Shown here: positions 1 through 63,610 of the stretch, piece by piece
Layout of the letters: each line of letters opens with the position of its first letter
How positions within the stretch are numbered: position 1 is the first letter of the stretch
Source of the DNA: Lingula anatina
Lineage: Eukaryota; Animalia; Brachiopoda
DNA length: 64,000 bases
NCBI GenBank assembly: GCA_051362555.1
Contig: CM120642.1
Location: 23,188,001-23,252,000 of the forward strand
Direction: 5' to 3'
Program-made: the position numbers and the translations under genes
Notes under the pieces: generated by a model
What the model saw: the letters and a program-made list of their open reading frames with translations, nothing else
Databases searched by the model: none
Told to the model about the DNA's origin: nothing

Positions 1-2805
1 ACTAGGTGATGACGTAGCTCCAAACAAGTGAACTTTCATCCTGTATATTCCTGGTTCCTCATTGAAGTCTTCTGTATCCCACCAAAGGAATCTTAAGTAG
101 TCACAGTGAGCTGGGCTAACTCTCACTTGATGAAACATTTCTTTGATATCTCCCATTACTGCTACTTCATTTTTTCTAAATCTTGTGAGCACACCAAATA
201 ATGAACTTGTAAGATCGGGCCCCTGTAGCAGACAGTCATTCAAAGATCTTCCTTTGAATTTGGACGCACAATCAAAAACTATTCTTGTCTTCTCAGGTTT
301 TGCTGGATTGAATACTGGAAAATGTGGCAGATACCATGCCTGCGGTTGATCTTTGTTTGTCATAACTTTCTCAGCATATCCCTTCTTCAAGTTTTCCTTC
401 ATTGCACCCACATAATTCACCTTTAACTCTGGGTCCTTGTCCAACCTCTTCTTTAATAGTAACAGCCTCCTCCTTGCCATATCAATGTTGTTATCAAGAG
501 GTTTTTCTTCTCTCCATGGTAAGTCTACGCAATAATGCCCATCTTCATATTTCACACTTGTCTTGAATATCCCTAGTGCCTTGATATCTTCTCTGGACAT
601 CTCTTCTTTTCCTTTAACTTCCTCAAAGTCTCTTTCAGTGTACTTGTTAAACATTTGAGTAAGTTGGGAATCTTTCCTTATGAAATTTGAAGTCACAGTC
701 TTTCCTTTCCGTTTTAGTGGGCCATTTATTGTCCATCCGAGTACAGTCTGTATAGCACATGGTTCTCCCTCTCCTCCACTAACCACTTTTTTGGGCCTTA
801 ATGCTTCAAAGTTATCATTTCCAATAAGCAGCCCTATTGTTTCATCTTGTTTGTGGAAGTAGAAGGGGATGTCCTGTAAGTGGGTCCACTCACTGATGTC
901 TTCTTGTGTTGCCCTGTCTTCTAATGATATAGGGAGTTTGCTTCTTGTTAATACTGTTGACAGTTGCATACTATGGTTTTCATCTACATCACTTATCTGT
1001 AAGCTGACAATTTCTCCAATCACTGGGGTAGCTTCTTTTTCTAGGGTTGTTAGTGTGTACTGTGTTTTCTTTCCCTTTATTCCCAGTTTCTTCTTGAGAC
1101 CTTCAGTGCAGAAGGTGGAATTTGAACCGCTGTCCAGTAGTGCGTACGTTTGCACTACATTGTTTCCATTTGGGTTTTTCACCTTCACTGGCACTATGGG
1201 TAGTCCAATTGCAACATTTTCCGTGTCAACAAACCCATTAGCAGCACGTGGAGGGGTAGAGGAATTGTTCTCATTTGGCATACTATTGTAACTATGTAGA
1301 AGAGTATGATGCCTTTTCCCACAAACTTCACAGTTCCTTTTAAATTTACATTCATGTGCTGTGTGGTTTGGTTTAAGACATTTGAAGCACAGACCTTTGC
1401 TTAACACCATCTTCCTTCTTTCTTCATATTTGTCTGACACAAAAACTGGGCACTGGTCCAACCAATGATCTTGGCTGCATCTGATACAATGCTTGCTGAC
1501 TGCTGCAGGCAGATTACCTTCTCTTGAGAAACTTTCTGACGCTTTGGATTCAGCAATAAATGACTGAGCCTTGATGGACGATTTGCTTGAAACAAGTGAC
1601 ATGTCAACCAAAGAACCAAATACAGGGTCACGCCTCTTCTCTGCTTCCACTTCAACCATCTTTACCACATCATTCAAAGTCGGAAATTTGCCCAATGCTG
1701 TGATCTTGTGATTGTTCTCTAACCATTTTTTCCTCATATCTAATGGAAGTTTCTCAATAATTCTTCGTAAGGATTGTCCTGTATTTAATTCTGCCTCACA
1801 ATTCATGGCACTTAACGTATCTTGGCACCCTCGAAGTGTATCGGCAAATGCTCTCAATTGTGCACTGTCTTTTATTGATTTGTGATTTAAAACTTTGTTG
1901 ATCCAGGCTTGAGAAATCAGATACGGATTGCCAAACCTTCTCTTCAGAGTTGTCATCGCTTCTGAGAAACCCTTACTTGGATCTGGGTGGTACAAACAGG
2001 GGGATATAGCATCTCTTGCTGGGCCTACTGTGTAATGATATAACCTAGTTAGTTTTTCATCATCGGTCACTGTCATTTTATCCACCATTGAAGAGAAAAG
2101 TCTCATAAAAGGCCAATACTTTATGTGATCTCCATCAAACTTGATGAGATCTGCCGGTGGGAGACGCATAGACTCTATGCTGGCTTGTTGTTGTTGTTGT
2201 GATAATTTCAAAAGTTGGGCCAATGAAGACTCAGCTGCAGAAGCAGGTGATTCAGCTGTTATTCTCTTTTCACCTTGTGTGGTTTCTGGAAAAAGCGGCT
2301 TTACGTCGGTCTGCTCCTTAACTAATCTAAATTCCTCACGTAACCTTTCTTCTTGCTCTTTTATAAGACGCGAAAATTCTTGTTTATCTTGCTCCTGGCT
2401 ATCACGTTGCTGTTTGATCTCCTTGAGAATCTGATTGAGTACAGAAGTCACATTTTCTTCAGCTTGCTGTTCAACAAGGGGCTCTGGTTTCTCCATTACC
2501 CTGCCAATCCAAGACAAAGTTGAAGCTCTAAAATCCCTAACTTCATGTAGCACTGATGATAAATATCCTTCTGAGACATCAATGTCATCCTCGTCCTTCA
2601 GAGTTACATGGTAACGTTCATGGGCTTTAACAAACTTACTAACTGCTTGACTAAGTGCTTCGAGCCCTTCTTCTACCTCCTTTACTAAATTGCTACTCAT
2701 AGATGAATTTATCTGATTTATGGTTCGTGTCACAACACCTTTAGCGGCCCCTCGTAGACGTTTTAAATTCATTGGGTCTTCGGTTACATCTTCTAAATCA
2801 GACAT
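1..2805 (-). CDS. BEL/Pao LTR retrotransposon gag-pol polyprotein (5' part; runs off the window edge)
   Basis: ATG at 2805 (MSDLEDVTEDPMNLKRLRGAAKGVVTR). Triple zinc knuckle CIRCSQDHWLDQC...CFKCLKPNHTAHEC...CEVCGKRHHTLLH (~1295-1490), aspartic protease YALLDSGS (~1125-1147), and RT motif YRMKVHLFGATSSPS at 1-45 in the same frame. The ORF track lists no stop-terminated ORF in this frame, consistent with an open frame to the edge. Confidence 0.95.
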   Translation of the reverse strand, partial: MSDLEDVTEDPMNLKRLRGAAKGVVTRTINQINSSMSSNLVKEVEEGLEALSQAVSKFVKAHERYHVTLKDEDDIDVSEGYLSSVLHEVRDFRASTLSWIGRVMEKPEPLVEQQAEENVTSVLNQILKEIKQQRDSQEQDKQEFSRLIKEQEERLREEFRLVKEQTDVKPLFPETTQGEKRITAESPASAAESSLAQLLKLSQQQQQASIESMRLPPADLIKFDGDHIKYWPFMRLFSSMVDKMTVTDDEKLTRLYHYTVGPARDAISPCLYHPDPSKGFSEAMTTLKRRFGNPYLISQAWINKVLNHKSIKDSAQLRAFADTLRGCQDTLSAMNCEAELNTGQSLRRIIEKLPLDMRKKWLENNHKITALGKFPTLNDVVKMVEVEAEKRRDPVFGSLVDMSLVSSKSSIKAQSFIAESKASESFSREGNLPAAVSKHCIRCSQDHWLDQCPVFVSDKYEERRKMVLSKGLCFKCLKPNHTAHECKFKRNCEVCGKRHHTLLHSYNSMPNENNSSTPPRAANGFVDTENVAIGLPIVPVKVKNPNGNNVVQTYALLDSGSNSTFCTEGLKKKLGIKGKKTQYTLTTLEKEATPVIGEIVSLQISDVDENHSMQLSTVLTRSKLPISLEDRATQEDISEWTHLQDIPFYFHKQDETIGLLIGNDNFEALRPKKVVSGGEGEPCAIQTVLGWTINGPLKRKGKTVTSNFIRKDSQLTQMFNKYTERDFEEVKGKEEMSREDIKALGIFKTSVKYEDGHYCVDLPWREEKPLDNNIDMARRRLLLLKKRLDKDPELKVNYVGAMKENLKKGYAEKVMTNKDQPQAWYLPHFPVFNPAKPEKTRIVFDCASKFKGRSLNDCLLQGPDLTSSLFGVLTRFRKNEVAVMGDIKEMFHQVRVSPAHCDYLRFLWWDTEDFNEEPGIYRMKVHLFGATSSPS

Positions 2806-2895
2806 CTTTGTTGACTTGACTTGGTGTTGACTTGGTACAAATCAGCTTCTTCTTTCTTTAGGTCTGTTCCGTGATAGGCAAAAGTCTAAACTGCA

Positions 2896-22805: not shown

Positions 22806-25193
22806 ATGGATGAGACGGCCGCGATGTATGCGGCAGTTCAGAAGCATTCAACGCCCGTAGCTCCGCCTCGGAGTCGAAAGAAAAGCAGCACTAGTAGCAG
22901 CACCAGTGGCAGCTCTACTCCCAGAACAAACCAGGACCCTGTCGCCCCGCCTAGGCGGAAATCGGTGGAAAAACAAAACCGATTGGTTGAATATAAGGAA
23001 GTCTATAGTAGCCTTCGATCTGCTTGCAAGTCACATAACCACGAGAAGATCAAGGACTTATTAAAGACACACGAAAAAGCAGCTCTAGACTTGTGTACCC
23101 GGTTTGAACAGTCGGAGGGGCAAGGGTCTCTGATGGCGAACGCGGCGTTAAACTGTGCTACAGACACCTTAAAATTGTTCTTCGATGCCGGAATTCCTGT
23201 TAACTGCATGGATTTGAACGGAGAAACGGCTCTTCACGCAGCTGTCAAGGGAAACCATGGCGCCGTCGTACACTTTCTTTTAAAGAATTACACCGAAGTG
23301 GACGTGGAATTACGAGACTTGGACGGCGCGACAGCTCTGATAACGGCGGTTGAAAACGGCAACATTGAAATCGTTAAGATGTTACTGGATTGCAAATGCA
23401 ATCCAAACTGTTCCTACAAACACGGGTTTACTGCTCTGCAACAAGCGGCCGCGCATTCAGAAGTAGAAATATGCAAGGTGTTACTGGAGAACGGCAAGGA
23501 TATCGATATCAATCAGCCAGACGAGGACGGAAACACGCCGCTGATTTTGGCAGCAAGCATAGGGTGTGAGAAAGTTGTAGAGGCGTTGATCAAGCATGGG
23601 GACTGCGACATTAATCGCCACAACAAACAGGGCTTTACGGCGCTCCACGGGGCAGTGGACGGCGGATACAGGGACGTTGTGTCCATCCTTGTTGAGGCAG
23701 GTGCGCAGGTAAACCACGTCCCGTCAACCGGTGTGACAGCTCTTTTCCAAGCTGTGGAAAATGGATTCGATGAAATCGTAGAGATCCTTCTAGAGAACAA
23801 AGCTTACGTCACGTTAGCTAAACCGGATGGGTCAACCCCTCTTCACGTCGCTGCATCTAAAGGGCGTGAGCAAACGCTGCGGAAGCTCATCAAATCAGGC
23901 GCTTGTATCGACCAGCAAGACAATGCCGGTGCCACGCCCTTGTTTGACGCGGCTTCCAAGGGACAAGAAGAAGCCGTGAAACTCCTCATCGCCGCCGGGG
24001 CTAACTTGCAGTTATCGGATAAAGAAGAATGGACGCACTTACACGTAGCTGCCAGCAACGGGCACGCAAATTTAATAGAACTTCTGGTGGATGCCGCAAG
24101 CGATAACATAAATAAACAAGGCAAGGCGGGGGTAACGGCTCTGTATCTTGCAGCCCAAAATGGTCACGTGGTGGCTGTCAGCGACTTGCTGGAACTAGGC
24201 GCCGACTTGAACATTGCAGAAATAACCAAGTCTCGCACTCCTCTCTTCGCCGCCGCTCTCAACGGTCACCTCGATATCATCAAGTTGCTTCTCTCAAAGG
24301 GCGCCGACATCAACTCGCCGGCATCCAACGGCTGTACACCACTCATGGCGGCCACGTCGTCACGCCACACTAGAGTCGTCAACTTTCTCCTAGAGAACGG
24401 TGCCAAGGTTTCCGGACACGATGATAAAGGGTTCGGTGCTCTCCACCTCGCCTCAGCCAGTGGGGATATTACTCTGGCTAAGTTATTCGTCGCTGCCGGG
24501 GCTGATGTTGACGCTCAGTCTTTTACTGGCATAACAAGTTTGTATCTTGCGGCACAAAACGGCCAAACTGATATGATAAGGTTTCTGCACTCTAAACAAA
24601 CTGACATGAACGTCATTGGGAAGAACGGGTATAGCGCTCTCCATATAGCGACCATTATGGGTCAAGAAGATTCGGTAAAGACGCTGCTTGAGGAAGGTGC
24701 TGACAGCGATGTTTGCAGTGCAAAAGGAGACACCAGTTTGCTGCTTTCCGTGATCTACGAAAAGTCAACCATCACAGAAATCTTAATATCATATGGTGCA
24801 GACGTGAACTGCAAAGACTCAGACCAAAAAACGCCCCTTCACCACGCCATAGAGAGGCATGATATTCTAATGTTGGAACTTCTCTTGGAAAATGACGCTG
24901 ACCCGAACAGCCAAGATGTCGCTGGCTGGACCCCGCTTCACATAGCGTCTCAGTTAGGGGACACTGATGCAGTCTCCGCTCTACTTTCCAATGGCGCTGA
25001 CGTCAACAAAGGTGACGTCGACATGACGACACCCCTTCACGTGGCTGTTTACGCCAAACGCACTGGGGTCACGAAGCAGCTTGTTAAGGCTGGTGCCGAT
25101 GTTTTAGCAGCCGGCTTTAAAGGACAGTCTCCCATGGACTTGGCGGTGACCTCTGAGATACGCAGAATTCTGGACGCTGCTGTAAAGCGGTGA
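22806..25193 (+). CDS. Ankyrin-repeat protein (~20 repeats, 795 aa) with Pro/Ser/basic N-terminal tail
   Basis: Uninterrupted 2.4-kb ORF with good start context (ACCATGG) and ~20 consecutive 33-aa TPLH-type repeats from about aa 105 to the end; N-terminal PVAPPR twice. Confidence 0.95.
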   Translation: MDETAAMYAAVQKHSTPVAPPRSRKKSSTSSSTSGSSTPRTNQDPVAPPRRKSVEKQNRLVEYKEVYSSLRSACKSHNHEKIKDLLKTHEKAALDLCTRFEQSEGQGSLMANAALNCATDTLKLFFDAGIPVNCMDLNGETALHAAVKGNHGAVVHFLLKNYTEVDVELRDLDGATALITAVENGNIEIVKMLLDCKCNPNCSYKHGFTALQQAAAHSEVEICKVLLENGKDIDINQPDEDGNTPLILAASIGCEKVVEALIKHGDCDINRHNKQGFTALHGAVDGGYRDVVSILVEAGAQVNHVPSTGVTALFQAVENGFDEIVEILLENKAYVTLAKPDGSTPLHVAASKGREQTLRKLIKSGACIDQQDNAGATPLFDAASKGQEEAVKLLIAAGANLQLSDKEEWTHLHVAASNGHANLIELLVDAASDNINKQGKAGVTALYLAAQNGHVVAVSDLLELGADLNIAEITKSRTPLFAAALNGHLDIIKLLLSKGADINSPASNGCTPLMAATSSRHTRVVNFLLENGAKVSGHDDKGFGALHLASASGDITLAKLFVAAGADVDAQSFTGITSLYLAAQNGQTDMIRFLHSKQTDMNVIGKNGYSALHIATIMGQEDSVKTLLEEGADSDVCSAKGDTSLLLSVIYEKSTITEILISYGADVNCKDSDQKTPLHHAIERHDILMLELLLENDADPNSQDVAGWTPLHIASQLGDTDAVSALLSNGADVNKGDVDMTTPLHVAVYAKRTGVTKQLVKAGADVLAAGFKGQSPMDLAVTSEIRRILDAAVKR

Positions 25194-39028: not shown

Positions 39029-39762
39029 TACCCTCTACCAGGGCCACAGATTGATTTTTCACTAGATATTTTAATATTAAATTAAAATTCAATATTAATT
39101 AAAAGGCTGCGTTCACATGTAAAATCTATTTTCTAAAAATCTAAAAATCTGTTTGCGGTATCTTGTGATCACGGTCTGTGCCCCGAATACCCCACAGCGT
39201 AATTACGGGCAGCGCGAGCCAGTTACTTACAAAGCTGTAATTAATTCTCGGCGCTGCCAGTAATTACGCCGCGGGGTATTCAAGACACAGACAGTGATCA
39301 CAAAATACCGCAAATAGATTTTCAGATTTTTAGAAAATAGATTTTGCATGTGAACGGTCCCTAACAGATATGTCTCTGGTTTAACAGCTGGCTAATTTCT
39401 GCACTGTGACCCTGTTCTGAAATCTCAAGGATGATTACATGGCTTGTAATTGTTTACATATAATAGCTACTCAGGCACTGTCACTTAGCAAGCCCCTGCC
39501 AAGTCCCCTTGACAGTAATCAAGACAGTTAACTGCTCATCTGGACAATAAAAACAGCCCCTCAGAAGACAGACAAGACAAGGCAGGTTGCGTAACAAGCG
39601 CTTATTACATTGGCGCGAAGCCCAGCTCTCACTGAGCTCTTGCAGAGCAGGTACAATGCCATCTGCGCGCGTGCAGATTTAATTGCTCCCATCTGGCCAA
39701 ACGTGACAGGGTCGCCTCAGCAAAAATGTCCACAATAATAACTGCGGCCCTGGTAGAGGGTA
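39029..39762. mobile_element. Non-autonomous Mutator-like DNA transposon (9-bp TSD)
   Basis: TIR TACCCTCTACCAGGGCC(A/G)CAG (20/21 match), flanked by an exact 9-bp duplication GGTTTACAT (39020-39028 and 39763-39771). Confidence 0.85.
39105..39361. mobile_element. Palindromic MITE (PIF/Harbinger-like) nested in the Mutator-like element
   Basis: ~100-bp arms GGCTGCGTTCACATGTAAAATCTATTTTCTAAAAATCT... / ...AGATTTTTAGAAAATAGATTTTGCATGTGAACGGTCCC. Confidence 0.8.
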
Positions 39763-40479: not shown

Positions 40480-40651
40480 CAGGCCCGTAGCCAGGGGGGG
40501 TTCGGGGGGTTCGAAAGAACCACCCTTTTTGCTGGGAAAAGGTCCACTCTGGGTAAAATTTTATCTATGTACTTGAGGATTTTATGGTAAAAGGTCCACT
40601 TTTTCAGAAAACGACCCCCCCCCCCCTCTGAAATTGCTGGCTACGGGCCTG
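40480..40651. mobile_element. hAT-like MITE
   Basis: Perfect TIR CAGGCCCGTAGCCAG / CTGGCTACGGGCCTG. Confidence 0.75.
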
Positions 40652-42920: not shown

Positions 42921-43028
42921 TCACTGCACAGTCATAACGCCAGCTCTGCCGAGGGGAAGATGCTGTCAGATTCTGAGGATTTGTACCAATTATTCTAGGA
43001 TATCAAGGAAAACAAAAACGACACCAAT

Positions 43029-45447
43029 ATGAGGAGTAAAGGAAAAGGAGGTAGGTGAATGAAGTGGGCTCTTAGTTTCTTTGTAAGCGAGACCAGTATG
43101 GAAATATTTTATTTACAAGAAGTCGATGTAGACCTGATGAGTGTCGCTACACAGCGGCTTTGTTTCAGCGCGGTGGAGCGCAGGCGGTTTTACGTTGCGA
43201 CTGGATCTGGTTAACACTTCCCCGCACCTCATGTTTGCGTGTTTACGAGGCCAAGTTTACTCTAACTGAGAGAATTTTCATTCATTTCTTGCCGCCCGTG
43301 ACAAGATAAGTTAAAAGTTTGTTAACTGGCAAATATATTTCTAAGATGTCTTGTTTAGAACCATGTATTCGACCACTGTTTAATATTTTATCCACGACAC
43401 CCCCAAATTGATCACACCTGTTGATACTTTGAAGGGAAGTCTGGATAAACACGTGCGTTTGTCTGTTCAGTTTCAATGTCAACAATGATATTTTGATCTG
43501 CCTTAAACACTAGTCTTCTCTAGTTCCTTAAAGTAATTGATTGTACAAAATGATGACAAATTATCCTTGACATTTTGTGTCAACGTAAAGAATTTAACAT
43601 TAACTTGTCATTCTTTTTTGCACATGATCTTTATAACATAATCTGTTTTAATGTAGAATCGGTATTTGTCATCGTTTTTATAAAGCAGTTTTTATTGCTC
43701 TAAATTTTTTTTCGCTCAGATATTTGACTTCAAAACAGTTTGGCTGTATCAATTGTTCTGTCTGTCTGTCTGTCTGGGCAGTAAATACATAAATTTTAAA
43801 CTTTTAATATTCAAATAAAAGACAGTGGGGTTCAGTGTAGTTATCTTAGGTAGATATAGACCACGCCAGAAGGCGCTAGACTGGCTTAGTATAAATACAT
43901 GCCGAGTCAGCACGAAGAGCAATGGGATCTGAGCGTCTAATCTACGAAATTAATACAATCAAGATTCTTGATACAATCCATAAGTGTTTATGAGCGAGAT
44001 TTATTTCATGATTAATTTCTTTGTCAGTAAACATTATACGTATTCCATATTCCCACAAAACAAACACAGGGTAATGATGTCATTAAATGGTTTTTGATAT
44101 CATAAATGCCTTGAACGAGGTCAAAACTGAGCTAGGCTAGATGGTCGAGGCTGATCAAGAGCGCGCCTCGTACGATCGTCTTGAGAGATCCAGCTGGGGT
44201 TATAATCTTCACATTCTCTCATTCTGATGTCAGTAGATTTTAAAATACTATACAAAATTAAAGTATAGATACAATAAATTAGTTACAGACCTCTAGCGGA
44301 CCCTGTGGTCAGAGTGCACCCTCATCCTTGATTCAAAAATGAATGCGAAAACACGTTGTCAACATGTACCTAATATATAGGTAACTGTTGAAAGGACTTT
44401 GTGACTTGTCTACCACGGTGAAGTACTGAGAAAAAAAGCTCCACGATTGCATAGACACGTATTATAGCCTATTATAAAAAATATTGGGTTTGCGCTCAAA
44501 GCCACATTGATGTTATTTGTTAATGCTAAACACGGATTGCATAATTCATCGTTCGTTCTGAAAGGAAAGGACGTCTTAATGACAGTATGGCAGAGAGGGC
44601 CAGCATCAGCTCCTTCTTGTTTTTGACTTGGGTGTGTTTTATAGGGAGAGAGAGAGAGAGAGAAAGACCTGATGTGTGGCAAAGCGTGTCTTAAACCATC
44701 TTTCTTCTGACGCAGCTCGAGTGCAAAATTATTCACAAAGACTGTTATGTTTAGGGCCAGTGAATGATGTCGTGTCATTTTACAATTACTCCCCTTGTGT
44801 TTTTGTCCATCAGCATGGTAGCACTGCGTTTTGTTACTTTTCATGATTTTCGATCTCAGACTACGTATTGTTTTCTTGTTCAAAATTGGAATTCACTGTA
44901 CGATTGTATGTGCTACACGTAGACTGTTCTTTTTTTACGCATTACAGTACATTTTACTGTATAGTTCATCATAATATAGGCTACAATGCAGTGAATATAG
45001 TAGTGGAAAAATTCAGACTCCCGAAATGTTTTTGTGGGTGTCGCGTTGAAGTTGATGGGGAAAATGTGACTCACAGGGGGGCGGATTGGGAGGGGTGCGG
45101 CAGTTACTGTGACCTTCACATTTCAAATGGGGATCCAGATATCAATATGCATGATAAAAACCTATGGAAACCACCAAGTATACAAACAGACATTGAAATT
45201 AGATATTTGCATCCGACATTGGTGGATAAATAAATAAAGGGGAATCTCCGTTTGAAATGTAGTCAACGCATCACCGGTAACTATTGAGTTATAACGTAAC
45301 AGAAGAGATAACGGCACAGAGAACCAGGATGCCAGAGGAAAGGAGTGTGCCGATTACATTCCAGACAGCGACCTCTAGCAGACCCCTTAATCACGAAATT
45401 GAGCCCAGCGATTGATTGCAGTAAGCCGTTAATTTTTGCAATGAAAA

Positions 45448-51000: not shown

Positions 51001-54000
51001 TTTCTTCCTTCTCGCCCCTTTGTTCTCTTCTTTTATTTCTTCCTATTCTTTCTGTCCCACATTTACTCAACCATTAGCTCCTAAAAATATGTTTTTTGGT
51101 CTTCCGAAATCTTTAAAATTGATGGAGTACCACGGGTTTCTTTCGCCTTAAAAAATCTTTACAGACTAAACACTAGATAAAATTTAATAAATTGCATTAA
51201 TCATTTATGTGGTGATACATGTATGCATATATGTACCAGTGTTTGTAACAGTAAAATTATTTACCAGATATTTAACTCTATAAACCAGGGGAGAGTCGGG
51301 GGGGGGGGGCACGAGACCCCCCCCCCCCCCATTTCCCCTTCGATTTCTGAAAACAATCACATCAATCTTGAAATTCGAATTTTGACCAGCTGAATCGTTC
51401 TAAACCGTACCAAATGCCACCGTTCGCCCTCTAAAATACCAACATTTTCCGTGGCCCTTCAACAGGCCCCGAACCCCGCGCCAAGGGGGGGGGGGGGGGG
51501 GGGTCGGCCTTTCATTACCAAAAACGGACCCCCCTTTCAAGTAATCCTAGATCTGCCCCTGTTTACAGTGTACACGCCGATTCGACACAAGTTGTACAAC
51601 TTGCTGAATTACTCATCAAAAATCAAGACAACTTATGCTAGTGTATTATTTACAAGGGAAGGACTGCAATGTTACAGCTTCTGCAGAATACTAGCTGTAA
51701 TTTTGTTGACGTGTGTACAGGATTAAACAACTCATTAAGTGTTTGTCCTTGACCTTCAAGACGCCTTCGATTGTTACTAGCAAAGTCAATATCAACTTTC
51801 AACCAGGAAGAAAAAGCATAGGTCTACAGTTTGACACACGAAGTGCCGCTGGCCGTGAACCAACATAATTTAACAAGAGTTTCTTATAACCCAAAATTTC
51901 TGTGCCCTTAAAGAGTATTCGAGTGATCCCACCTGACTGAGCATACTGTGGTATTTGGCAGCCGTTTTCCCACTGCCAGTGGACTTTAATGATTTGAAGC
52001 TGCCTGTATATGCATGTAACTTTAGTCGAGCCTCGCTCCGTTTTGGTGACATGCACTTCGTAATTTATGTGGGGTAAATCCGGAGTAAATCAGAGAGACG
52101 TTTTTTTCGTACTTTTTAACAGGGTGAGCCCATGTGACAATTTAAGCCAAATATAAACAGACGCTCGAGTTTTAGATGGAACGCTCTGTGCCTGTCAGAA
52201 AATTTGTCTGTAACGTGGTACATGTAATAAAGGAGTGACGGAGTAGGTGGAAAGAAAAGACTGGCGAGGCCTATCCCATATAATGAGCTGTAACCTTCAT
52301 TTTAAAGCGTGGTTTTATTAAAACAAAAGTGGCTTGTTTAATACATGCAATTCATAATGCATCACCTCTGGAAGGAAATGTTCCTACTTTTTTTCGTCCT
52401 GTCTAATTTAACAGCGGTCATTAATTCTGCGAATTAAAAAATACCTTTTCATATCCCTTGTCTATATATGGAAACGCCTTTAAATTCTATCTTCCTTGAT
52501 GGATAGCAGAGTAACTGATTTAGAATTAAAAGCCTTTGGGTTTAAACAAACAAGTATGCTCCTTTATTTTGTAAATGTGTTCGTAGCGCGCCCATGTAAT
52601 GTCGCATATTCCTATTTGTTTGAAAATTGTCGGCAAAAAAAAGTAATCATGAGAATTACGTTACTGAAATGATTTTGATAATGTGCAGTGTATTACTCCC
52701 CATGCCAAACGTAGGCCTACATGTTTTACTCTTTCTCATGCAATCAAAAATAAAATCAATTTTGAAATGAAATGTCCAGATATACTTGTCTATGTTTATA
52801 TGGCCTCTGGTAAATTCGAGTGAACATTGCATAGAATTTTCCCAATGCCTCTTTTTGTTTTAGGTAAGGAGTGGTTGTCACAACAACTGCAGGACTTAAT
52901 GCTTTTTTTTATTATATTGGAAGGTGGCACATGTATAACATTTTATTAAAATACAACTACATATTTCGACGTCGTCGCAAAAAGCGCTTATTCGTTTTTC
53001 ACAAACGCATCTACGTCTATCTAGACCCTTGCTGTCCTTTAACAACTATTAACATTTGGGTCAATTAGTGACAGTATAGTGTAAAAAATGAAAATGAAAA
53101 ACTTAACATGTTAGTCAAAGTACGTAGAATCCGAACAGTTAAGAGAACCTTTATGTGAGGCAAAAATATATATTAAAATTTTTTGTAACCCACTGACCAT
53201 ATGGAGAGATGAAAGATGTTCTTATCCATGGATTTCATAATTAAAATGGCTTGTAAGGGATTTGATTACTCTGCTGTTAATTTGAAGTGTCTGTGACTTG
53301 GATTTCAATCCAATTTTAAAGTTCAGGTCCGATTTTAAAGTAACACATGTAAATCACTCCTACTAGTCTTATGCAACTCATATAAAGCCCACGTGCCGAT
53401 GAAAAAACCAAATTAATCATTCGATCAACCAAGAACCTTCAAGTTTCTGGTCGTAATTTTCCTTCCATTCTGTTCGAAAAGTCCGCAAATTTCGTAGTTA
53501 GGTAGGGGCGAATCCAGGATTATTTGAGGGGGATCCGCATGTGCAAAGCCGACCCTCCCCCCCCCCCCCCTTGGAGTGGGGTTAGGAGTCCCGTGAAGGG
53601 CTTTTGTTTAATTATGTGTGTACACGACCAGTGGAACTTCGTGTGTCAAACTGTAGACCTATGCTTAAAAATTTCCTCCTGGTTGATAGTTAATGTTGAC
53701 TTTGCTGGTAACAATCGAAGGCGTCTTGAAGGTCAAGGACAAACACTTAATGAGTTGTTTCATCCTGTAAACACGACAACAAAATTACAGCTAGTATTCT
53801 GCGGAAGCTCTAACATTGCAGTCCTTCCCTTGTAAATAATACACTAGTTTAAGTTGTCTTGATTTTTGATGAGCAATTCAGCAAGTTGTACAACTTGTGT
53901 CGAATTGGCGTGTACACTGTGCACAGGGGCGGGTCCAGGATTACTTAAAGGGGGTCCGTTATTTTGGGAATGAGGGCCGCCCCCCCCCCCCCCACCCCCA

Positions 54001-55608
54001 CCTTGAAGTGGTATTCGCGGCCCTTCAGCGGGCCCCGAAAATTTTTGGTATTTTAGAGGACGAACGGTGGCATTTGGTACGGTTTTGAACTATGATTCAG
54101 CTAGTCAAATTTTTAACTTCAAGAGGGGACCATTGGTGTGATTTTTTTTCAGAAATTGGACCCCCCTGTATGACGCATTACTGCTGTGCACGCAATAATA
54201 TTATTCATATGAAGTTTGGCGAAAACGACCGAGTGTAAGAGAAGAATGTATTTATTAACGTGACATGTGAATATATAAATATATGAATCACCTGTTCGCG
54301 TGGGCTTACAAGTCACCGAACTTTGCACATTTATCAAAAACATCAGGTTAAGGTTATAACAAGAACAAACACGGTTAGATATATGATAATACAGTATATA
54401 CAGTAGTACAGTAGTTATTTATGGTACACTATGTATCTTTATTTGTCTTTGTGATATGTGACGCAGAAAGATAACCGAAAATATTTGTTCAAATACCAAG
54501 TATCAATTTTTATGATAAATAAATATACACATATAGCTCATACATTTAAAAGGCAATACTGTACTAGAGCTGCCTTATAGGAAATAGTGAGGGCCATCTT
54601 TTCATCGCACACATTCCTTGAGAACACCTACATGTATGGTGTATTTTAAATCTGCATTGATTTTAATCTTGCCCTGTGACATATAATAAAGGTGCATAAA
54701 TACATAGATCACCAATCAATTTAATTATTGCCACTGTTTTCCAGGGGATGGCATCTCATTCATTGGCTACAACGCCATACGCCAGCTCTCTTTATTGCTG
54801 GATCCTCATGACGCATTCGGCAATGATTGGAGAATGCTGGCAGACATATTGGGATTCAGTTTCCAAGAGATCCGAAAACTGGAACGAGAGAATGAACCCA
54901 CCAAGGCCTTGTTGTCTATCTATAGCGGTAGATGTGGCCAACCAGGAAGACAGTTCGTGGATAATTTGTATCAAGGGGCAATGTCTATGGGACGGACAGA
55001 CGTTGCAAACGTTCTACAGGATATACTGGATAAGTATGACAATCACAAGGCACCTGTACCTCACAGCATTAACACACTGCCTGTAACTGACACAGAAAAA
55101 ACGGCACCGTCCGATGAAATTCAAAAAGATCCTGTTGGCTGGACGCCTTCTTGCCATAAAGAGGGAGACTTAGAACCTGAAATAGGCAGCACGCAGGATA
55201 AAGACGTCAAGTTACTGAACATTAAAAATGCAAATGAACACAATATACCAAATAACTGTCCGACGTCTCCTGAAGATAATTCTCTGGCAAACGAATTTTG
55301 CCAGCCAGTGCCAAATGATTGTGACAATGGAGACGACACATGTGTATTGGAGCTCGGTAAGGAATCTCCTTCTATATAATAACACCTAACAAAATGAGAA
55401 CGACTTATGGTCATGTAGTGCTGCTTATGGAAGTTCATGCTTTGCATGAATGGTCAAGATTAAAAGGCGCAGATATATGTTCAAATTCTATCAATATTAT
55501 TCAGTCAAATTACACACAATGGAGAATGGAAGTGTCACCCCCTGAATCAGAGTAATCAATAATCAAAGAAGTCAGATCTTGAGTATTTATAATGCCTGGT
55601 CTTCATTT

Positions 55609-55643
<35 letters not shown>

Positions 55644-58600
55644 TGTGTGAAATTTGATGTTAATAAAATGATACCAGGAGCATATCATTCCACATTCATT
55701 TATCTCCCCCAAAGTATTGGTTCAGTAGGGGTGACACTTCCATTGTCCATTGTGTGTACTTAGTAGTATACACACTGACTAAAGTAGTCAACGGTTGGTA
55801 ATTGTATAATTGCTACAAATGATTTTTTAGAACCAGGTTTTGGTGAAGAACCACTGCCGCCGAGCGTACCTGAACTATGCAGCCTTCTGCGCGCAGAATG
55901 CAGAGCATGTCTCGTGCGATACCTCCAATCCCATCTCCCTTCTAAAACCAAGAACGTGGCCAAAGTTCTGCGCGAAAAGAAGTATCGAGAAAAAATAGAG
56001 ACTCTCAAAGAAAACAGCATTATTACAGAAGAGGAATTTGCACTTCTATATCCTGCGCAAGGGGTTCAGTGTGACGTCACTGAATTGGACTTGCCTCTCC
56101 TAGTGGTCCTCATTAGGAACATTACCCGTGGGGTCAAGATAAAATGGGATAAAACACCCCAAGAATTTGAGATCTCAAAATCGGACGATGTGCTCCGAAT
56201 AAGAGCGTTCTATCCTCTGATTAAACAAGAATCTGCAAAAACAATGGACCTGGAGGAATACGATGAGTTGTTTGTTGGTGTTTCAGAGCCCCTCCGGAGA
56301 ATGGGGGCTAACGTGGACAATTTGGTCAACTATAGAAGAGACAGGGTGACCCTAACTGATCCGGAGATTGTGGAAAATCTTGAGGAACAGAACCAGGGAA
56401 TCAAAAGACTGACGGAAATCGTTCATAAATACGGGAAACTTGGATTAGTTCTTGGTGTTGCGGTGCTACTTGTTATTATGGCAGTTATAGTGTATGTTGT
56501 GTCTGCGCCCAAAACGGAGTTTCCGACTATAGAAACGCCATGCAGAAAGAATATTGAACTTATAAAAAACCGTGAGTGTAGTCTCATTATACAATTTATC
56601 ACATCAGAGCCTTAAAATCACATTGAGGTGGGATGTGCTTTGCTCACCTGGACAAAAATGTCGCGTAATCGTCGGTCCATTGGCCTCTATGATATAGAAT
56701 TAGTCCCTCGATGATGTAAGTCATTATTGTAAGTCTAATGTTTTGGTTAAAAAGTGAGCTCAAAGCAATGACAAATCACTTAAGGCCCTTCCGATCTTTT
56801 TTAAAATGTAGTACAAAAGAGTCGATACACTTTGATGTTTACATTTCGATATTTGTATATTTGTGTATATGTATACAGTATTTTACTGTTTATGTTTTTT
56901 TCAGACACGTATATCCAACTGATGCCAAGAGCTGGATGGAAAGCTCGATATCCATCTGGCGAGCGAGACAAGCTCGTCTTGCCAGCGCACCGAGTTATTA
57001 TTGCTCACACTGGCGGCCTCTACTGTGGTCCCACAGAAACTCAGAAATGCTGCGAGTATGTAAAATCTATGCAAGATGATCACATGGATGGGAGAAGTAA
57101 GTAGTATATAAATATTTTTAAGTTTCTTTGAAAGATTTTTTTTTTTTTTGGGGGGGGGGGGGAGGGGGGGTCACAAAGAAAAGCCCATGCAACTCCGTTG
57201 CCCTCGCTCCATTACCGTTCCCGTGCCAGTTGAAATTAATTTTTTCATTTACATCCTTTGAATTTACTTCTTCTTTGGTCTACTTACGTACGCTTAACTT
57301 TATTGATTGACAAAGTGACAAATGTCATACTTACATGTTGATAATAATTGTATGCCAATTTGTCATATCCAAGTTTAGGCCCTCATTTTCGCTTTAGAAT
57401 AAGCCTAATCGTGAACATTTGAAACCTATCTTAAATAAGATTGTGTATTTTTTAGGTAATTTAAGATGGAACAATACAACGACCCATAATTGTCAAGAGC
57501 GTATGAGCCTGGAAATTAAATTAAATTCTTCTCATGACATACCTGTATTATCCGAACGTATTTCCTTCTTTTCGTCGTCTGACTGCCAAAGCCCCGAGTT
57601 GAAATAGCAAATCATATGAATAATATCTAGAATTGTGGGGAAACTGAAAAACAAGCCCTGCTATAAAAAAGTACTTAAATGGATAAAGCGATGCTCAATG
57701 ATAAAGAAAATTATTTATTTGTGTCAAAATCCAGAGCGTTTGGCAGGAGGTAGGCACTATATTACTTCAACATGTCATGACTCAAACGCTAGAATTAAAT
57801 CAGTCGTTAAAAACGTAGGAAACTATGATACAGTTTATTTAAATTGACACTGTTGAGGTCTACCAGGTGTTTTACAAAAATATAATATTTAATGCAGACT
57901 ATATTTAGCTATAGGAAACCAAAAACCAAAAGCCTGCACAATAATAATAATACTGCCCGCCGAGGGGTTTAGTGGTGATGGTTGGTGAAGAATTATACTT
58001 GAGTCAGTGAACACTCAATTATTGATTTTTTTTCTAAAAGAAAAAAGTATAGAAAAGGGAACGCTGAAATCGATTCATCTTTTGTGGATAAGTAAGGAAA
58101 ACGGGCTTAAGACGTCATCAGTAGTTAAAGTCTGTGTTAGAGATAGCGGCTACGGAGATGCTGCTCATTTTCACAGTTTCACTTTAAAAGTAGTGCCGTA
58201 AGTGAGAAGCGCTGATGAAAATGTCGCGTGCGTCTGATGCTATAGTGACTGACGCATTTCCCAATACAATTAATTGACTTAGCCCATCACAATTTTAGCC
58301 TTCTTTTCCTATGACACCATGCGTGCAATGAGTGAAAATGTTTATTATTTTGTCCGGAGAACATTTTTAAAGTCTGAAATCCTCAGTGAGCAAAATGTTA
58401 ATAATGCACGCCCGGGGTCAAAATTTAATTTTATTTTGACCAAAGATAAGTCATTACTAGTTCTATTCCAAAGAATATCACCGCTGATAAATAAAATAAA
58501 TCCTGAGTCGATCTTGCCATAATGGGGAGTATGTAACAAGTCATTCCCATACCTAGATCGATTTAGCAGGATCGACCCATCTCCGAGAGGATTCTTGCTA

Positions 58601-61141
58601 AATTGTATTCAGATTAAGCGGCCTCAATGTCTGACACGCCTACTGAAACTGCTAAACGATAATTAATTACACCCTATCAGTTTTAGTAGGCGTGCCAGAC
58701 ATCAGAGCCGCTTTAAGCTGAATGTAATTTAGCGAGAAACCCGTCGGAGATAGAACGGTCTATGAGATCGATCTAGGTATTGGAATGGGGTCTTATTCAA
58801 ACTGCTGTATATGCAAAACGTCTACTATCATTCACGATTATGATCGCCACCGCTTGCTAATAATCTTCCGTGCTGTGGCTAAAATGGCCCGCTAAACATG
58901 TTTGTTTTCCACCCGGCTCTCTGTGCTACGCACGTTTTATATGGTTTGTGATCATAAGAGGTCCACATGATGTGCGCCCACACGCCACCTGTTTTTGCTT
59001 CCTCTTATAATCTTGAATGGTCAATTGGTTGCCCTAATGCTTTCCCCGCAAAGTCTTCGCCTTATATAATAAATGAACCTTGAATTGTGAAGTCAAAACA
59101 ACATTATCAATATTACGATAAAATTCATCTTTACTGAGTATTTAATTAACATGGGACCTTATTTTATTATCTTTTTTTTTCTTTTTGAAGAAATGCTAGA
59201 CTCCGTGAAGTTTATAATTATTATCATAATAACATTTATTTTATTTTATAAAAGTTTATAATATTGAATTCCAGACTTAGGGAGGTAATGGGCTAAATAA
59301 TATACAATCCCAGAATTTCATATACTGTATTTTGGCGAGATAAGGAATTCAAGATCCGACACCAACGTCCAATTAGCGTCCGATTGTAATAACTGCGAAA
59401 TAACAACAGACTCATTGGCAGAAAGAACAGGTCGTTTAAGTTCAAGCCAGGGCTTTTAGGGTCGTTGTTTGACCTTACGAGATCATTGCTAAGAAACCGT
59501 TTACGTCAGTGATATAGTAATAGACCGCGTTCAGATAAACCCTAGCTGGATCGATCCATATATGAGGGGATTCTCATTCAAGTGCATGCATTGTAATCAG
59601 CTTAATTGTCCAACAGGCCTCCTCGAGTGAAAGAGCTTCCGAGAGCCGAGCACGCACCTTAGTCAATTACCCACTTACTGGTCAAGGAGGCATACCAGAC
59701 ACATAAGCTGATCACATTGACTGCACTCCAGCGAGAATCCCCGCAGAGTTGGATCGATTCATCTAGTTTGAAAGGTTTATCTGAACGCTCCCATTGCCTG
59801 CACTTCAGCAAGAATCCCAACAGAGTTGGATCGGTCCATGGGGTTTATCTGAACCCTCTCATAGAAAGCACGCTTAAAGTTGTCGTTCAGATTGCCATTA
59901 ACACATCTCCGTCAGATCTCTGTTACGTCTTGTATTTCTATTTTCAGAATGGTATGACATCGGCTACAATTTCCTGGTGGCTGAAGACGGTGTGATCTAC
60001 GAAGGTCGAGGGTGGGATTACATCGGGGCTCACAGCTATCGGTGAGGACACTTCAAGTCCTGATACATGTACTACGATTACAGCATTTGAGTTTGATAAT
60101 GTTTTTTAGAGACTGCAAGAGATTGACTTCGTCTCTCTCATTGTTTGCTTTCAAGTTTGATTGTTTTCCTGTTGAAAAAATGTCCAGGCTACGGATTAGC
60201 CAGTTTTACCACATTTCAAAAATTTTAATTTACCCTTAAAAGGTGAATCTGTACAGCAGCGGACAGGTTGTAGTTTTAATTCAGTGATACTGGCCTGGGT
60301 GTATCAAAAATAAATACCATTCTTCATGGGAAAGAAAGTCGAAGACCAGAAGAGGTCTTGCCTGCATTTTGTTAACATCGAAACTATTTCTTTTCAACAT
60401 ATAATCATAGCTACAATATCCTTATAACAGGCATTTCAATCTCTCCTTATACCTTACAGCTGGAACAACGATTCCTATGGCATCGCATTCATCGGTGACT
60501 TCCGCTTCCAGGCGCCCAAGGAACGCGCTCTCACCGCTCTCAGAGAATTTCTGAAGTACAGTGTTTATAAGCAGAAACTGTCTCCGGATTATGTCTTGTA
60601 CGGACAGTGCCAGGTCCGCCCCTTCGAGAGCCCGGGGGAGGAACTCTATAAGATTTTGATGACATGGGACCATTGGGTAAGTAGGTCAGATAGTTGATTG
60701 CAATCAGTAGCAATGGGCTCAGGATGATAGAGCTAACAAGTTACGTTGAGCCGGTTCAGAACCTGTGTGTTCATGTACGAGTCTCAAGATTTTAAATCTA
60801 GTGTGGTACGAGAAAATGAAACTGTCCTTTTCTCAATACGCAAAATCGTAAGTTTTTAGCATTTTACATGCAGACTCTCTAAATCTTTTCTTGTGTGGCA
60901 CGTTTTTTGAATTTCTTTCAAAAAAAAAATAGAAAACATGTTCGATTATCGAAAAATGATTTATTGAAGAACTTCACGCGAGGGCTATGATTTGTAGTTC
61001 AGTTCAGCAAGTATGTCATATTTATGTATTTATATATTTATTTATGATTTCTTTTTTCAGCAACCGCGCATTGGTACGAACGAGGAACTAAAACTTGGGC
61101 CTCACAATAGGACGTCATATTGTGTAGACGATCGGTTGTAA
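43029..61141 (+). CDS. Transmembrane peptidoglycan-recognition receptor: death domain - linker - DZIP3-type HEPN-like domain - TM - non-catalytic PGRP domain (~652 aa)
   Basis: Exons 43029-43050 (candidate start MRSKGKG, least certain), 54745-55356, 55831-56571, 56905-57096, 59948-60041, 60460-60676, 61061-61141 (TAA). GT-AG introns in phases 1,1,1,1,2,0 give one open frame. Death domain RQLSLLLDP...[12 protein letters not shown]...PTKALL...[14 protein letters not shown]-like LLYP...[13 protein letters not shown]...W...P...[36 protein letters not shown] motifs [54 protein letters not shown]...W.HW. Confidence 0.85.
45450..45521. repeat. (GT)n(GA)n compound microsatellite
   Basis: Direct reading. 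Confidence 0.95.
48013..48085. repeat. (GT)n/(GCGT)n microsatellite
   Basis: Direct reading. Confidence 0.9.
51286..54168. repeat. Long inverted repeat (arms ~51286-51879 and ~53601-54168, spacer ~1.7 kb); foldback-like element with hAT-like CAGGGG termini
   Basis: For example CAAGTTGTACAACTTGCTGAATTACTCATCAAAAATCAAGACAACTT and GCATAGGTCTACAGTTTGACACACGAAGT in the left arm are reverse-complemented in the right arm. Confidence 0.9.
54753..55030 (+). other. Death domain (MyD88/IMD-like) coding segment
   Basis: [57 protein letters not shown]...[22 protein letters not shown] fits the six-helix death-domain pattern. Confidence 0.85.
55513..55756. mobile_element. Tc1/mariner-type MITE (TA TSD) between the death-domain and HEPN exons
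   Basis: TA|CACACAATGGAGAATGGAAGTGTCACCCC ... GGGGTGACACTTCCATTGTCCATTGTGTG|TA. Confidence 0.85.
55870..56320 (+). other. DZIP3-type HEPN-like domain coding segment
   Basis: Pattern [12 protein letters not shown]...[14 protein letters not shown]...WDKTP...[11 protein letters not shown]...[15 protein letters not shown] parallels the invertebrate DZIP3-like HEPN consensus recalled from memory. Confidence 0.75.
56439..56501 (+). other. Transmembrane helix (type II signal-anchor)
   Basis: 21 hydrophobic residues [21 protein letters not shown] preceded by basic HKYGK. Confidence 0.9.
58542..58794. mobile_element. Palindromic MITE, family A
   Basis: CATTCCCATACCTAGATCGAT...ATCGATCTAGGTATTGGAATGGGGTCTT; very similar to 63611-63877. 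Confidence 0.85.
59525..59860. mobile_element. Family A-related palindromic MITE with duplicated right end
   Basis: GCGTTCAGATAAACCC...GGATCGATCC left end; GGTTTATCTGAAC right end occurs twice (~59775 and ~59842). A left-end fragment also occurs at 35737-35800. Confidence 0.65.
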
Positions 61142-63610
61142 CAAAATGTATTAGATGAAAAGCACAACTCGAATGTGTCTGCCGAGACAACTACCACAAT
61201 CCTCGAGCAGTTCAACATCATTAAGGAAAATGACGTACCGTTGCTTTGATAGTTGATGTGCTCAGCAGGCACATCGAAAAAGACGGCCTTTTGTATATTA
61301 AAACGGCAGGTGGACGTCACACCATTAAAAAAAATTACAAGAGGAGCCCGAGGTTTTGTGTGACAAAATACGTCTCACAAAGTTTGTATTTTAGAGTCGA
61401 TGATATTAAGATACAATATGACTGCCGATGTTGGTTTTATAGAAGAAATATAACAGCAAGTGGTGTGGTTATATGCAACAATGATGAGTAAAAATAAACG
61501 ACAGCAAAAACAATAGAATGTCTAGAGTCATCACTACCCCACAGGTTGCACTATGCCCAGATATGCATAACATGTATGCATTTATTTCTTAGCATTGCCA
61601 AAGGCGGCGAAATTACAGGGACTTGATACTCATTGATGCCATAGAATTTTTAGGCAGGCATGTTCCAGTAGTTTTCGAATGTCAGAGTACTGCTGTTGGA
61701 TATTTAATTCTGTTCAGGGCTTAGTTATTTTTATTTGAGGGTAAACTGTACACATAGAACTGGCCTAATTTTATTTTCATCTAGTCGCTCAATATAAACG
61801 TTACAAAATGGCTGTTTTGTTATCAGCCACTCATAAAGGTAGCAGCAATCAAAATTGAGCATTTAAGGTAACTTTTAAATGGTATTGTCTAGTCATGTAT
61901 AGAGGAAGCGGCATAGGCTCCAATTTGCTCCATAAACAGTGTTCACAGTATACTACATTGTAAATATAGCTACATGTACATATAAAATGATCAACTGGTT
62001 ATCCAGTTTGACATCAGATTGCCAAGAATTTTTTATTTTTATTTTTTAGTTTGAATGTTATAGATTGACCTATTATACATTGTCAACAAGAGCGAAGATA
62101 GCATAACGTTGTATTATGCTTAATGTTATTCTGCATGGTACTATTAACAGATATTTAGCAAATATTAACTATTTTTAAGTACAAGAAAAATATGCATTCT
62201 GCGTACATAGTGGGATCAGTGGCAATAGAACCCTGACAACTGCCTTCTTTTGTATTACTACAAGCGTTGGAAAACAGTGCAGTTTTTTTCACTCACCTTA
62301 CAAATTGTTTAAAAGTAGGTACTTTGCATGTATATAAAGGTCATTGCAATACGATTAAATGTGTAAGTATTAAATACTGACTTAATGATATTTCATTTTC
62401 AGTTCTACAGTGTAATTGTATCTTAATTTACACTGTATGCCCCTTGAGTACTATTTCTGATAAAACACTATGGGTAGTAAGTGTTGTAATTAGTGTTTGG
62501 GGTGTGACATATCCCATCAGCCATAAACATTTTCAGCGCTGGAAAATAAAAAAGTCCCATTTGTGTATTGTATTATATTTACAATAGCGTTTGGTCTCAA
62601 TAAACAGAAGTCCCACCGTGTATTTTGTACACAAGCATGTAAATGTTTAAATATTTTTCAATATATTTTTTATTATCAGTGAAATGTATTCCTTTTCATA
62701 TATGGGGGCCAAAATTAAGATAAAACTATTTAAGGTCATCTGGTAATATGATAGTTATTTTTTTGGCAATTGCCAAACTTTATTTTAAGAAAGATAGCGT
62801 CGTCTTTGTTTTACTTTTAGCATTAAATTACTATAGAACAGTGGTGCTGCCAGTTAGTTTGCAACCTACAAACATAATGTATTGAAGCTTTTCAAGTTAT
62901 GCACACTCTTTTGTGAAGAAAGTTGACATTTTAAAGTTCCATTACTGCTACCCACTGGAATGTAAAAAAAAGCAATTTGCCATTTAGATGTATGTAGTTG
63001 GGATTCCGGGTAAGACATTAAAAAAACCAGAATTCTATTGTAAAAAGGCTTTCAGTGACCACTAGTCGGTTATTACAGGTATATATCACAAGAACACCGT
63101 TTAACGAGGAACCAGTCTTCCAAGCATTGCTAGTATTCGTTATGGAATTCAATAGTGTAAACAAAAAAAAACTGTCTCATTCAATTTCCGTGTATTGTTG
63201 GCTATAAGACCATTCACTTTTGGTCTGTATGTATTACATCTATCCATGAAATAAATAAATCTAATGATATATATTTACATGTACATTTTAATTACTCCAT
63301 CCCATTAATTTTTTTTTTTTTTTTTTTTGGGGGGGGGGACAAAAATCTGCATGGCCTATTATTCAATATTGTAATTTACTCATATAATAACAGTCATTAA
63401 TTGTCCGTTTTTCATAACATCTTTTCTCCCCTCTACAATCTCGTACATATACATTTTGTACGTCCTTATCTACACAAACACATGCTATAAAGTGAATAAA
63501 GACGACCAATTCATCGAAAACGTTACTGTTCTATTTCAAATAACGACAAAGGCTCAATTTATACAAGGGATAATAATTCAAATCATGCCGACCATTAAAT
63601 ATTGTAGTTT

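Follow-up and report, generated by a model that had tools for sequence, protein, structure and literature searches.

A spliced Lingula anatina gene that joins a death domain, a DZIP3-type HEPN domain, a membrane-spanning helix, and a PGRP domain

The available text of PMC9835746 (preprint 10.1101/2022.04.26.489627), which reports transmembrane PGRPs in brachiopods and molluscs, did not find RHIM-bearing PGRPs or IMD there, and records an imd gene in a nemertean, leaves open how a transmembrane PGRP passes on its signal in animals without RHIM and IMD. We examined a locus of the brachiopod Lingula anatina that raises this question, in a stretch of 64,000 nucleotides (contig CM120642.1 of assembly GCA_051362555.1, positions 23,188,001 to 23,252,000 of the forward strand; hereafter the window). 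An earlier note on the window had proposed that six exons encode a receptor with a built-in adaptor. The gene, LOC106168506, is expressed, conserved, and real, and its spliced product of 652 amino acids carries a death domain, a DZIP3-type HEPN domain, one transmembrane (TM) helix, and a PGRP domain. It offers a candidate answer to the question, namely, an adaptor-type death domain held within the receptor and resembling that of MyD88 rather than that of IMD or FADD.

Gene structure and expression of LOC106168506

All six exons of the earlier note were found at their proposed positions in the window sequence with GT..AG ends. Joined, they read through 644 codons in one frame, which closes at 61139-61141, whereas the remaining frames contain 25 and 45 stops. 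They contained no in-frame ATG ahead of the death domain, and the proposed gene model, correct for these six exons, had overlooked a start exon. A protein search with exon 3 retrieved XP_013403046.1 (P0001; "uncharacterized protein LOC106168506", L. anatina, 652 amino acids), an automatically annotated entry that had eight extra N-terminal residues, which map to 43029-43050, 11.7 kb upstream of 54745, and otherwise matched the window translation except at 4 of 644 residues. The intervening intron has 11694 bases and GT..AG ends, and its junction was crossed by 14 reads from three of four runs. Because these reads extended back to 42974, beyond an in-frame stop at 42996, we took the ATG at 43029 as the start codon. 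XP_013403046.1 itself was not counted as independent evidence because it and the window sequence may share one genome project as their origin.

The RNA evidence, which is independent of the database model, consisted of raw short reads of six runs (X1 and X4-X8) from three studies. Each of the six junctions was supported in at least two runs, by 2 to 14 reads per run (Table 2). The five junctions proposed earlier were all borne out, including 55356/55831 and 56571/56905, which had been singled out for checking, and the reads support a single transcript for the death-domain, HEPN, and PGRP exons. Judged from stranded libraries, with first mates on the - strand, this transcript would lie on the + strand. 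No alternative exon-to-exon joint appeared among the rows displayed (all but 1 row in the first read set and all but 18 in the second). Run X1 gave no junction reads, and X6 gave none at the two junctions for which it was tested. X1, a poly-A run, yielded more sequenced letters than X4 or X5, yet 54745-61141 had almost no exon reads in it, and this near-silence suggests tissue- or stage-specific expression.

Table 1 Exons, domains, and sites of LOC106168506 in the window
Feature	Position	Strand	Remarks
Coding exon 1 (ATG, residues 1-7 and split codon)	43029..43050	+	Junction reads; in-frame stop 42996 upstream in the 5' untranslated region (UTR)
Coding exon 2: death domain and an acidic linker of low complexity	54745..55356	+	Phase 1-1, length divisible by 3
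Death domain, residues 21-101	54783..55025	+	Pfam E 5e-12; MyD88-like by PDB match
Coding exon 3: HEPN, helical stalk, TM helix, start of outer stalk	55831..56571	+	Phase 1-1
HEPN_DZIP3 (DZIP3/hRUL138-like), residues 252-372	55950..56312	+	Pfam E 7e-15
Position of the HEPN Rx4H ribonuclease (RNase) motif; Tyr339 and Gln344 where relatives have Arg and His	56211..56228	+	
Single TM helix, residues 417-435	56445..56501	+	Mean hydropathy 3.24
Coding exon 4: first part of PGRP (His493 kept; Cys499, 507, 508)	56905..57096	+	
Coding exon 5: PGRP core (Trp524, Tyr529, Arg543)	59948..60041	+	
Coding exon 6: last part of PGRP; Gln603 for second zinc His, Ser611 for zinc Cys	60460..60676	+	
Coding exon 7: C-terminal tail, glycosylation sequon, Cys647, stop	61061..61141	+	
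3' UTR, end approximate	61142..63300	+	Stranded read depth to ~63.3 kb; AATAAA at 63250

Table 2 Short RNA reads across the exon junctions, by run
Junction	X1	X4	X5	X6	X7	X8
43050/54745		5	3	0		6
55356/55831	0	0 (none listed in second read set)	3	none listed in second read set	4	7 (second read set)
56571/56905	0	2	4		7	
57096/59948	0	12	6		13	
60041/60460	0	7	2		14	
60676/61061	0	10	4		11	

Domain architecture and predicted topology

A Pfam scan of the whole protein gave three domain matches, all above the curated cut-offs (Table 1), the third being Amidase_2 (PGRP) at residues 486-605 (E 4e-15). The protein had only one hydrophobic segment (417-435) and no N-terminal hydrophobic signal, and the proposed order of death domain, HEPN, TM helix, and PGRP was thereby confirmed. 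The TM helix is flanked by four basic and one acidic residues on its N-terminal side and by two of each after it. C-terminal to it lie three glycosylation sequons and six cysteines shared with an annelid protein from Owenia fusiformis (see below). From the single TM helix, the lack of an N-terminal signal, the basic inner flank, the conserved outer cysteines, and the outer sequons, we infer a type II topology (N-in/C-out) with the PGRP domain outside and the death domain inside. The death domain and the HEPN domain are separated by a presumably flexible linker of 110-150 residues.

A simple pattern for the cryptic receptor-interacting protein homotypic interaction motif (cRHIM) occurred in both insect PGRP-LC controls and in neither the Lingula nor the Owenia protein (0/2). 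TRAF-binding patterns were absent from the cytoplasmic tail, and the Pfam scan of the whole protein returned no TIR, kinase, KEN, or TNFR-repeat match. AlphaFold2 monomer models were of low confidence, with a mean predicted local distance difference test (pLDDT) value of 37.3 for a single sequence and 35.4 for two sequences. For the whole protein, the ESM Atlas gave no usable feature match, and its structure rows were PGRP-LC-like at template-modelling scores of at most 0.34.

The PGRP domain is predicted to bind rather than cleave peptidoglycan

The best PDB match of the PGRP domain was Drosophila PGRP-LCx (2f2l chain X, E 1e-40). His493 and Tyr529 are retained, whereas the second zinc histidine and the zinc cysteine are replaced by Gln603 and Ser611, so that only His493 of the two His and one Cys ligands of catalytic PGRPs is kept. 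The zinc cysteine was missing in 10 of 10 sequences of the HEPN-PGRP family described below. In the available text of PMC4833078, zinc-ligand residues serve as the criterion for calling a PGRP non-catalytic. Because two ligands are replaced, the domain is predicted to bind peptidoglycan without cleaving it. Trp524 and Arg543 match positions of PGRP-LCx. These positions presumably favour diaminopimelic acid (DAP)-type peptidoglycan, and the ligand is probably of this type.

LOC106168506 shares with insect PGRP-LC an N-terminal tail, one TM helix, a C-terminal non-catalytic PGRP domain, Ser at the zinc-cysteine position, and the conserved Arg. It differs in having extra outer cysteines and no cRHIM and in its tail, which is made of a death domain and HEPN, whereas the tail of PGRP-LC had no Pfam match; its PGRP domain also falls outside the PGRP-LC clade in quick unrooted maximum likelihood (ML) trees.

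Among solved structures, the death domain most resembles that of MyD88

When the death domain was compared with PDB as a single sequence, MyD88 was the best match (E 1e-7), and the next match was at 5e-3. A four-sequence death-domain profile gave 2e-10 for MyD88 (entries 3mop and 6i3n) and 3e-3 for the next match; IRAK3 was at E 0.16, and the death domains of FADD, IRAK4, and RIPK1 were absent among the 49 matches of this profile at E<=10. The ESM Atlas placed the domain in generic Death clusters. The death domain thus appears MyD88-like, the likeness being one of sequence to the solved set and not a position in a tree. The earlier note had left the route downstream as FADD, IRAK, or caspase; given this likeness, IRAK4 would be favoured over FADD and caspases. 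MyD88 is the closest solved relative of the domain but differs from LOC106168506, which has no TIR domain and joins the death domain covalently to a membrane sensor.

The HEPN domain has lost its RNase motif and appears to be under constraint

In LOC106168506, the Rx4-6H RNase motif of HEPN is lost (Tyr339...Gln344). We classed 43 coding differences in the RNA reads, taking the best-supported rows (40 of 149 in the first read set and 40 of 162 in the second), a limited sample that favours sites with good coverage. Silent and replacement changes numbered 6 and 0 in HEPN, 5 and 0 in the TM helix and stalk, 8 and 2 in PGRP (with one stop-to-stop change in addition), 7 and 5 in the death-domain region, and 2 and 7 in the linker. 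The folded parts together (26 silent, 7 replacement) differed from the linker (Fisher p=0.003), which points to purifying selection on the folded parts, including the motif-less HEPN domain.

A homodimer model of HEPN (residues 222-392) scored 0.37, against 0.01 for the best of three controls, with 100% contact agreement and pLDDT of at least 85. For comparison, 21 of 30 microbial pairs, 17 of 29 eukaryote pairs (7 of 16 for animals), and none of 23 single chains attained the mark for a dimer, 0.32. The modelled interface comprises residues 265-275, 304-308, and 317-318 and takes in Asn308 and Trp317, which are conserved in the family.

The domain resembles the DZIP3/hRUL138-like HEPN proteins (PF18738) found among invertebrate NLR-like proteins, to which its Pfam match is above cut-off. 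Table 1 of PMC3710099, in the part available, lists fusions of DZIP3-HEPN to DEATH, CARD, NACHT, ankyrin, TPR, RING, and LRR; PGRP with a TM helix is not among these partners, and the loss of Rx4H is a further difference of LOC106168506 from PF18738 proteins. Expansions of DZIP3-type HEPN are described in the available text of PMC9646362 and PMC8260672.

A family of HEPN-PGRP proteins

Among 175 proteins, which took in the best 150 of 8909 representative-search matches (mostly plain PGRPs, so that more members are possible), seven distinct proteins combined HEPN with PGRP (Table 3). The closest counterpart is the annelid protein CAH1777915.1 (609 amino acids), one of 27 other matches in a search with the PGRP part. 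All three Pfam domains are matched above cut-off in it too, and it is colinear with and 40% identical to the Lingula protein. Its PGRP domain is 52% identical to that of LOC106168506, compared with 46-48% for the Lingula paralogues, and the two were sisters in a quick unrooted ML tree with a support of 85 in the Shimodaira-Hasegawa-like approximate likelihood ratio test (SH-aLRT). CAH1777915.1 is likely an orthologue. This colinear annelid counterpart and the several paralogues within Lingula would place the fusion before the brachiopod-annelid split.

Table 3 Distinct HEPN-PGRP proteins
Protein	Species	Architecture	HEPN motif
LOC106168506	Lingula	Death + HEPN + TM + PGRP	Rx4H lost
CAH1777915.1 (P0006)	Owenia	Death + HEPN + TM + PGRP	RHxxxH
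LOC106153404 (P0031), near-copy LOC106165502 (P0176)	Lingula	With death domain	Rx4H lost
LOC106150586 (P0039), near-copy LOC106168632	Lingula	Without death domain	RNxxxH intact
LOC106156274 (P0065)	Lingula	Without death domain	RNxxxH intact
P0160		HEPN + TM + PGRP, without death domain	RNxxxH intact
P0063, near-copy P0178		HEPN joined directly to non-catalytic PGRP, no TM	RNxxxH intact

All seven members have HEPN and six have a TM helix, whereas the death domain is present in three; what all members share on the cytoplasmic side is HEPN rather than the death domain. Five of seven keep an intact Rx4H motif, namely, all four members without a death domain and the Owenia protein, and both Lingula death-domain versions have lost it. 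The phase 1-1 exon cassettes for the death domain and for HEPN-TM would fit gain and loss by exon shuffling. P0063 and P0178 are possibly a cytosolic peptidoglycan-sensing version. LOC106153404 and LOC106165502 have Thr in place of the conserved PGRP Arg and, given the role we presume for this Arg, may prefer another type of peptidoglycan.

In quick unrooted ML trees, in which support for the family branch was not strong, the family PGRP domains together with a short HEPN-less protein (P0082) split from insect and catalytic PGRPs with SH-aLRT values of 82 (71 of 184 domains) and 90 (32 rows), and the insect PGRP-LC branch (96; 71 of 184 domains) left the family out. The fusion thus appears independent of insect PGRP-LC. 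The earlier claim of independent assembly would hold in this sense but is not supported as a lineage-specific event, given the likely annelid orthologue and the Lingula paralogues.

Other searches added no members. A word-based search with exon 3 found only its own protein among 2516 candidates and was insensitive here, and a two-sequence profile search found its own protein and one bacterial lysozyme and was likewise insensitive, as it missed the Owenia protein. A metagenome scan kept 80 of 533 loci, all of them matches to the amidase part, with HEPN or a credible death domain in none. In one match, P0087 (749 amino acids), two amidase/PGRP stretches accompanied DUF6973 and a lysozyme domain of the Pesticin-like type.

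Transmembrane PGRPs of brachiopods and molluscs are reported without RHIM where IMD was not found (Gerdol et al. 2018, as cited in the available text of PMC9835746), and LOC106168506 is very probably one of them; no death domain or HEPN on such proteins is mentioned in that text. In the literature searched, which included few subscription journals, no Death-HEPN-TM-PGRP or HEPN-PGRP protein was described, nor was one in the available text of PMC9334734, PMC12849515, and PMC7773633. The chance is about even that the death domain was already noted in the 2018 study of the Lingula immune system (Gerdol et al., Dev Comp Immunol 82:7-30). For the HEPN part, this is less likely than for the death domain, since PF18738 entered Pfam later than that study.

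Proposed signaling mechanism and alternatives

Our preferred reading, which we hold with about even confidence, is that LOC106168506 encodes a type II receptor in which peptidoglycan clusters the PGRP domains and the death domains recruit IRAK4/Tube-type kinases, leading to NF-kB without IMD. Polymeric peptidoglycan would cluster the outer domains, and the motif-less HEPN domains are predicted to pair under the membrane as a pairing or scaffold module. The death domains on their flexible linkers, which are MyD88-like in sequence, could then seed a Myddosome-like, IRAK4-recruiting assembly. In effect, the upper half of MyD88 would be built into the receptor, doing away with the TIR step, and neither IMD nor RHIM amyloid would be needed. 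Signaling without IMD, which the earlier note had suggested, is plausible. If this is true, one molecule, which may be as old as the brachiopod-annelid split, would combine the insect IMD pathway's sensor with the kinase cascade of the Toll pathway. By defining features, LOC106168506 resembles a PGRP-LC-type receptor with a MyD88-like piece and lies outside the PGRP-LC, MyD88, and Ire1 families. TNFR-type death receptors are type I proteins with N-terminal cysteine-rich repeats and a C-terminal death domain; LOC106168506 has the reverse order and no TNFR repeat.

Several points weigh against this reading. The MyD88 likeness was measured against a PDB set made up mostly of vertebrate and fly death domains, and a death domain that lacks TIR might just as well serve as a dominant-negative sink. 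Four of the seven family members have no death domain, which is thus not the essential output of the family. As to HEPN, some variant reads came from divergent animals, the dimer model passed only narrowly and may echo solved HEPN pairs known to the predictor, and the motif site (339-344) lies outside the modelled interface.

Five of seven members link an intact HEPN motif to PGRP, four of them via a TM helix; if these are active, they would be RNases triggered by the bacterial wall, and no such HEPN RNase was found in the literature searched. A broader reading, tentative and unlikely in our judgment, is that lophotrochozoans possess an old family of receptors for peptidoglycan with a ligand-clustered HEPN RNase as effector, comparable to Ire1/RNase L, some of which add a MyD88-like arm into Toll/IRAK signaling. 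LOC106168506 would then be a nuclease-dead signaling subunit, and the Owenia protein would do both jobs.

LOC106168506 might instead be a decoy or brake, as PGRP-LF is to PGRP-LC, which it dampens: it would bind peptidoglycan and, through its MyD88-like death domain without TIR and its dead HEPN, tie up IRAK4 or active partners, so that signaling is damped. Both of its catalytic sites are dead, the HEPN motif loss is shared by the other Lingula death-domain version, and the gene is expressed in animals without known challenge. We consider this unlikely, because activators are usually built in this way, with an outer domain that clusters coupled to a death domain, as in TNFR/Fas and TLR-MyD88, and because the Owenia protein keeps its death domain and Rx4H motif together.

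Ire1 and RNase L are activated by clustering, and clustered HEPN domains might likewise cleave RNA, as the main output of the family, in an RNase-receptor complex in which LOC106168506 is a pseudo-nuclease subunit that is paired with active paralogues and brings in a death-domain arm. This would fit the presence of HEPN in all seven members, the intact motif in each member without a death domain, the silent-only variants of the dead HEPN, and its modelled dimer. The available text of PMC3710099 ties Rx4-6H to RNase activity and counts the KEN domain of Ire1/RNase L as HEPN; there too, a sensor is tied to a HEPN-superfamily domain, and Ire1 is also single-pass. LOC106168506 differs from them in its peptidoglycan sensor, opposite topology, other HEPN family, dead motif, and lack of a kinase. 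We judge such a complex about as unlikely as a decoy, since RNase activity of a DZIP3-type HEPN was not found in the literature covered, where the site is termed putative (available text of PMC9646362), the modelled interface excludes the motif site, and the kinase domain of Ire1 has no counterpart here.

In a further alternative, the death domain would replace that of IMD and recruit FADD and caspase-8/Dredd, leading to Relish or cell death. The best solved relative of the PGRP domain is PGRP-LCx, and according to the available text of PMC9835746, orthologues of FADD, Dredd, and Relish are present in brachiopods and molluscs, where IMD and RHIM-bearing PGRPs were not found. Such a bypass is nevertheless quite improbable, since FADD and RIPK1 were absent from the profile matches that gave MyD88 and since the family PGRP domains group away from insect PGRP-LC. 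A fusion of neighbouring genes by gene prediction or mis-assembly is largely refuted and very improbable, for although no read or long-read cDNA covers the whole coding region, no single short read spans death domain to PGRP, and read counts per run are low (none in X1), every one of the six junctions has GT..AG ends and reads from two or more runs, and the same domain order recurs in an annelid protein and in a Lingula paralogue with 46% identity.

Other features of the window

An intronless open reading frame of 795 amino acids at 22806-25193 (+) opens with a short stretch rich in Ser and Pro, is otherwise nearly all ankyrin repeat (Pfam Ank_2 E 2e-133), and ends in its own stop, 18 kb upstream of the start exon of LOC106168506. 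It was considered as the missing 5' end of that gene and rejected, given its own stop, the lack of a phase-1 donor near its end, and the true start exon at 43029.

In the long first intron, two similar inverted repeat copies with poly-C/poly-G tracts (~51400-51830 and 53500-54100) drew many poly-C reads. Short intronic stretches at 55511-55760, 39029-39360, and 40480-40650 had high read depth with loose ends on both sides, and one read class joined 55758 to 40481; these stretches are probably repeats transcribed elsewhere. At 1-2841 (-), an open frame of at least 947 amino acids that runs off the window had DUF1759 and aspartyl protease matches; we take it to be the gag-pol of a Bel/Pao-type long terminal repeat retrotransposon.

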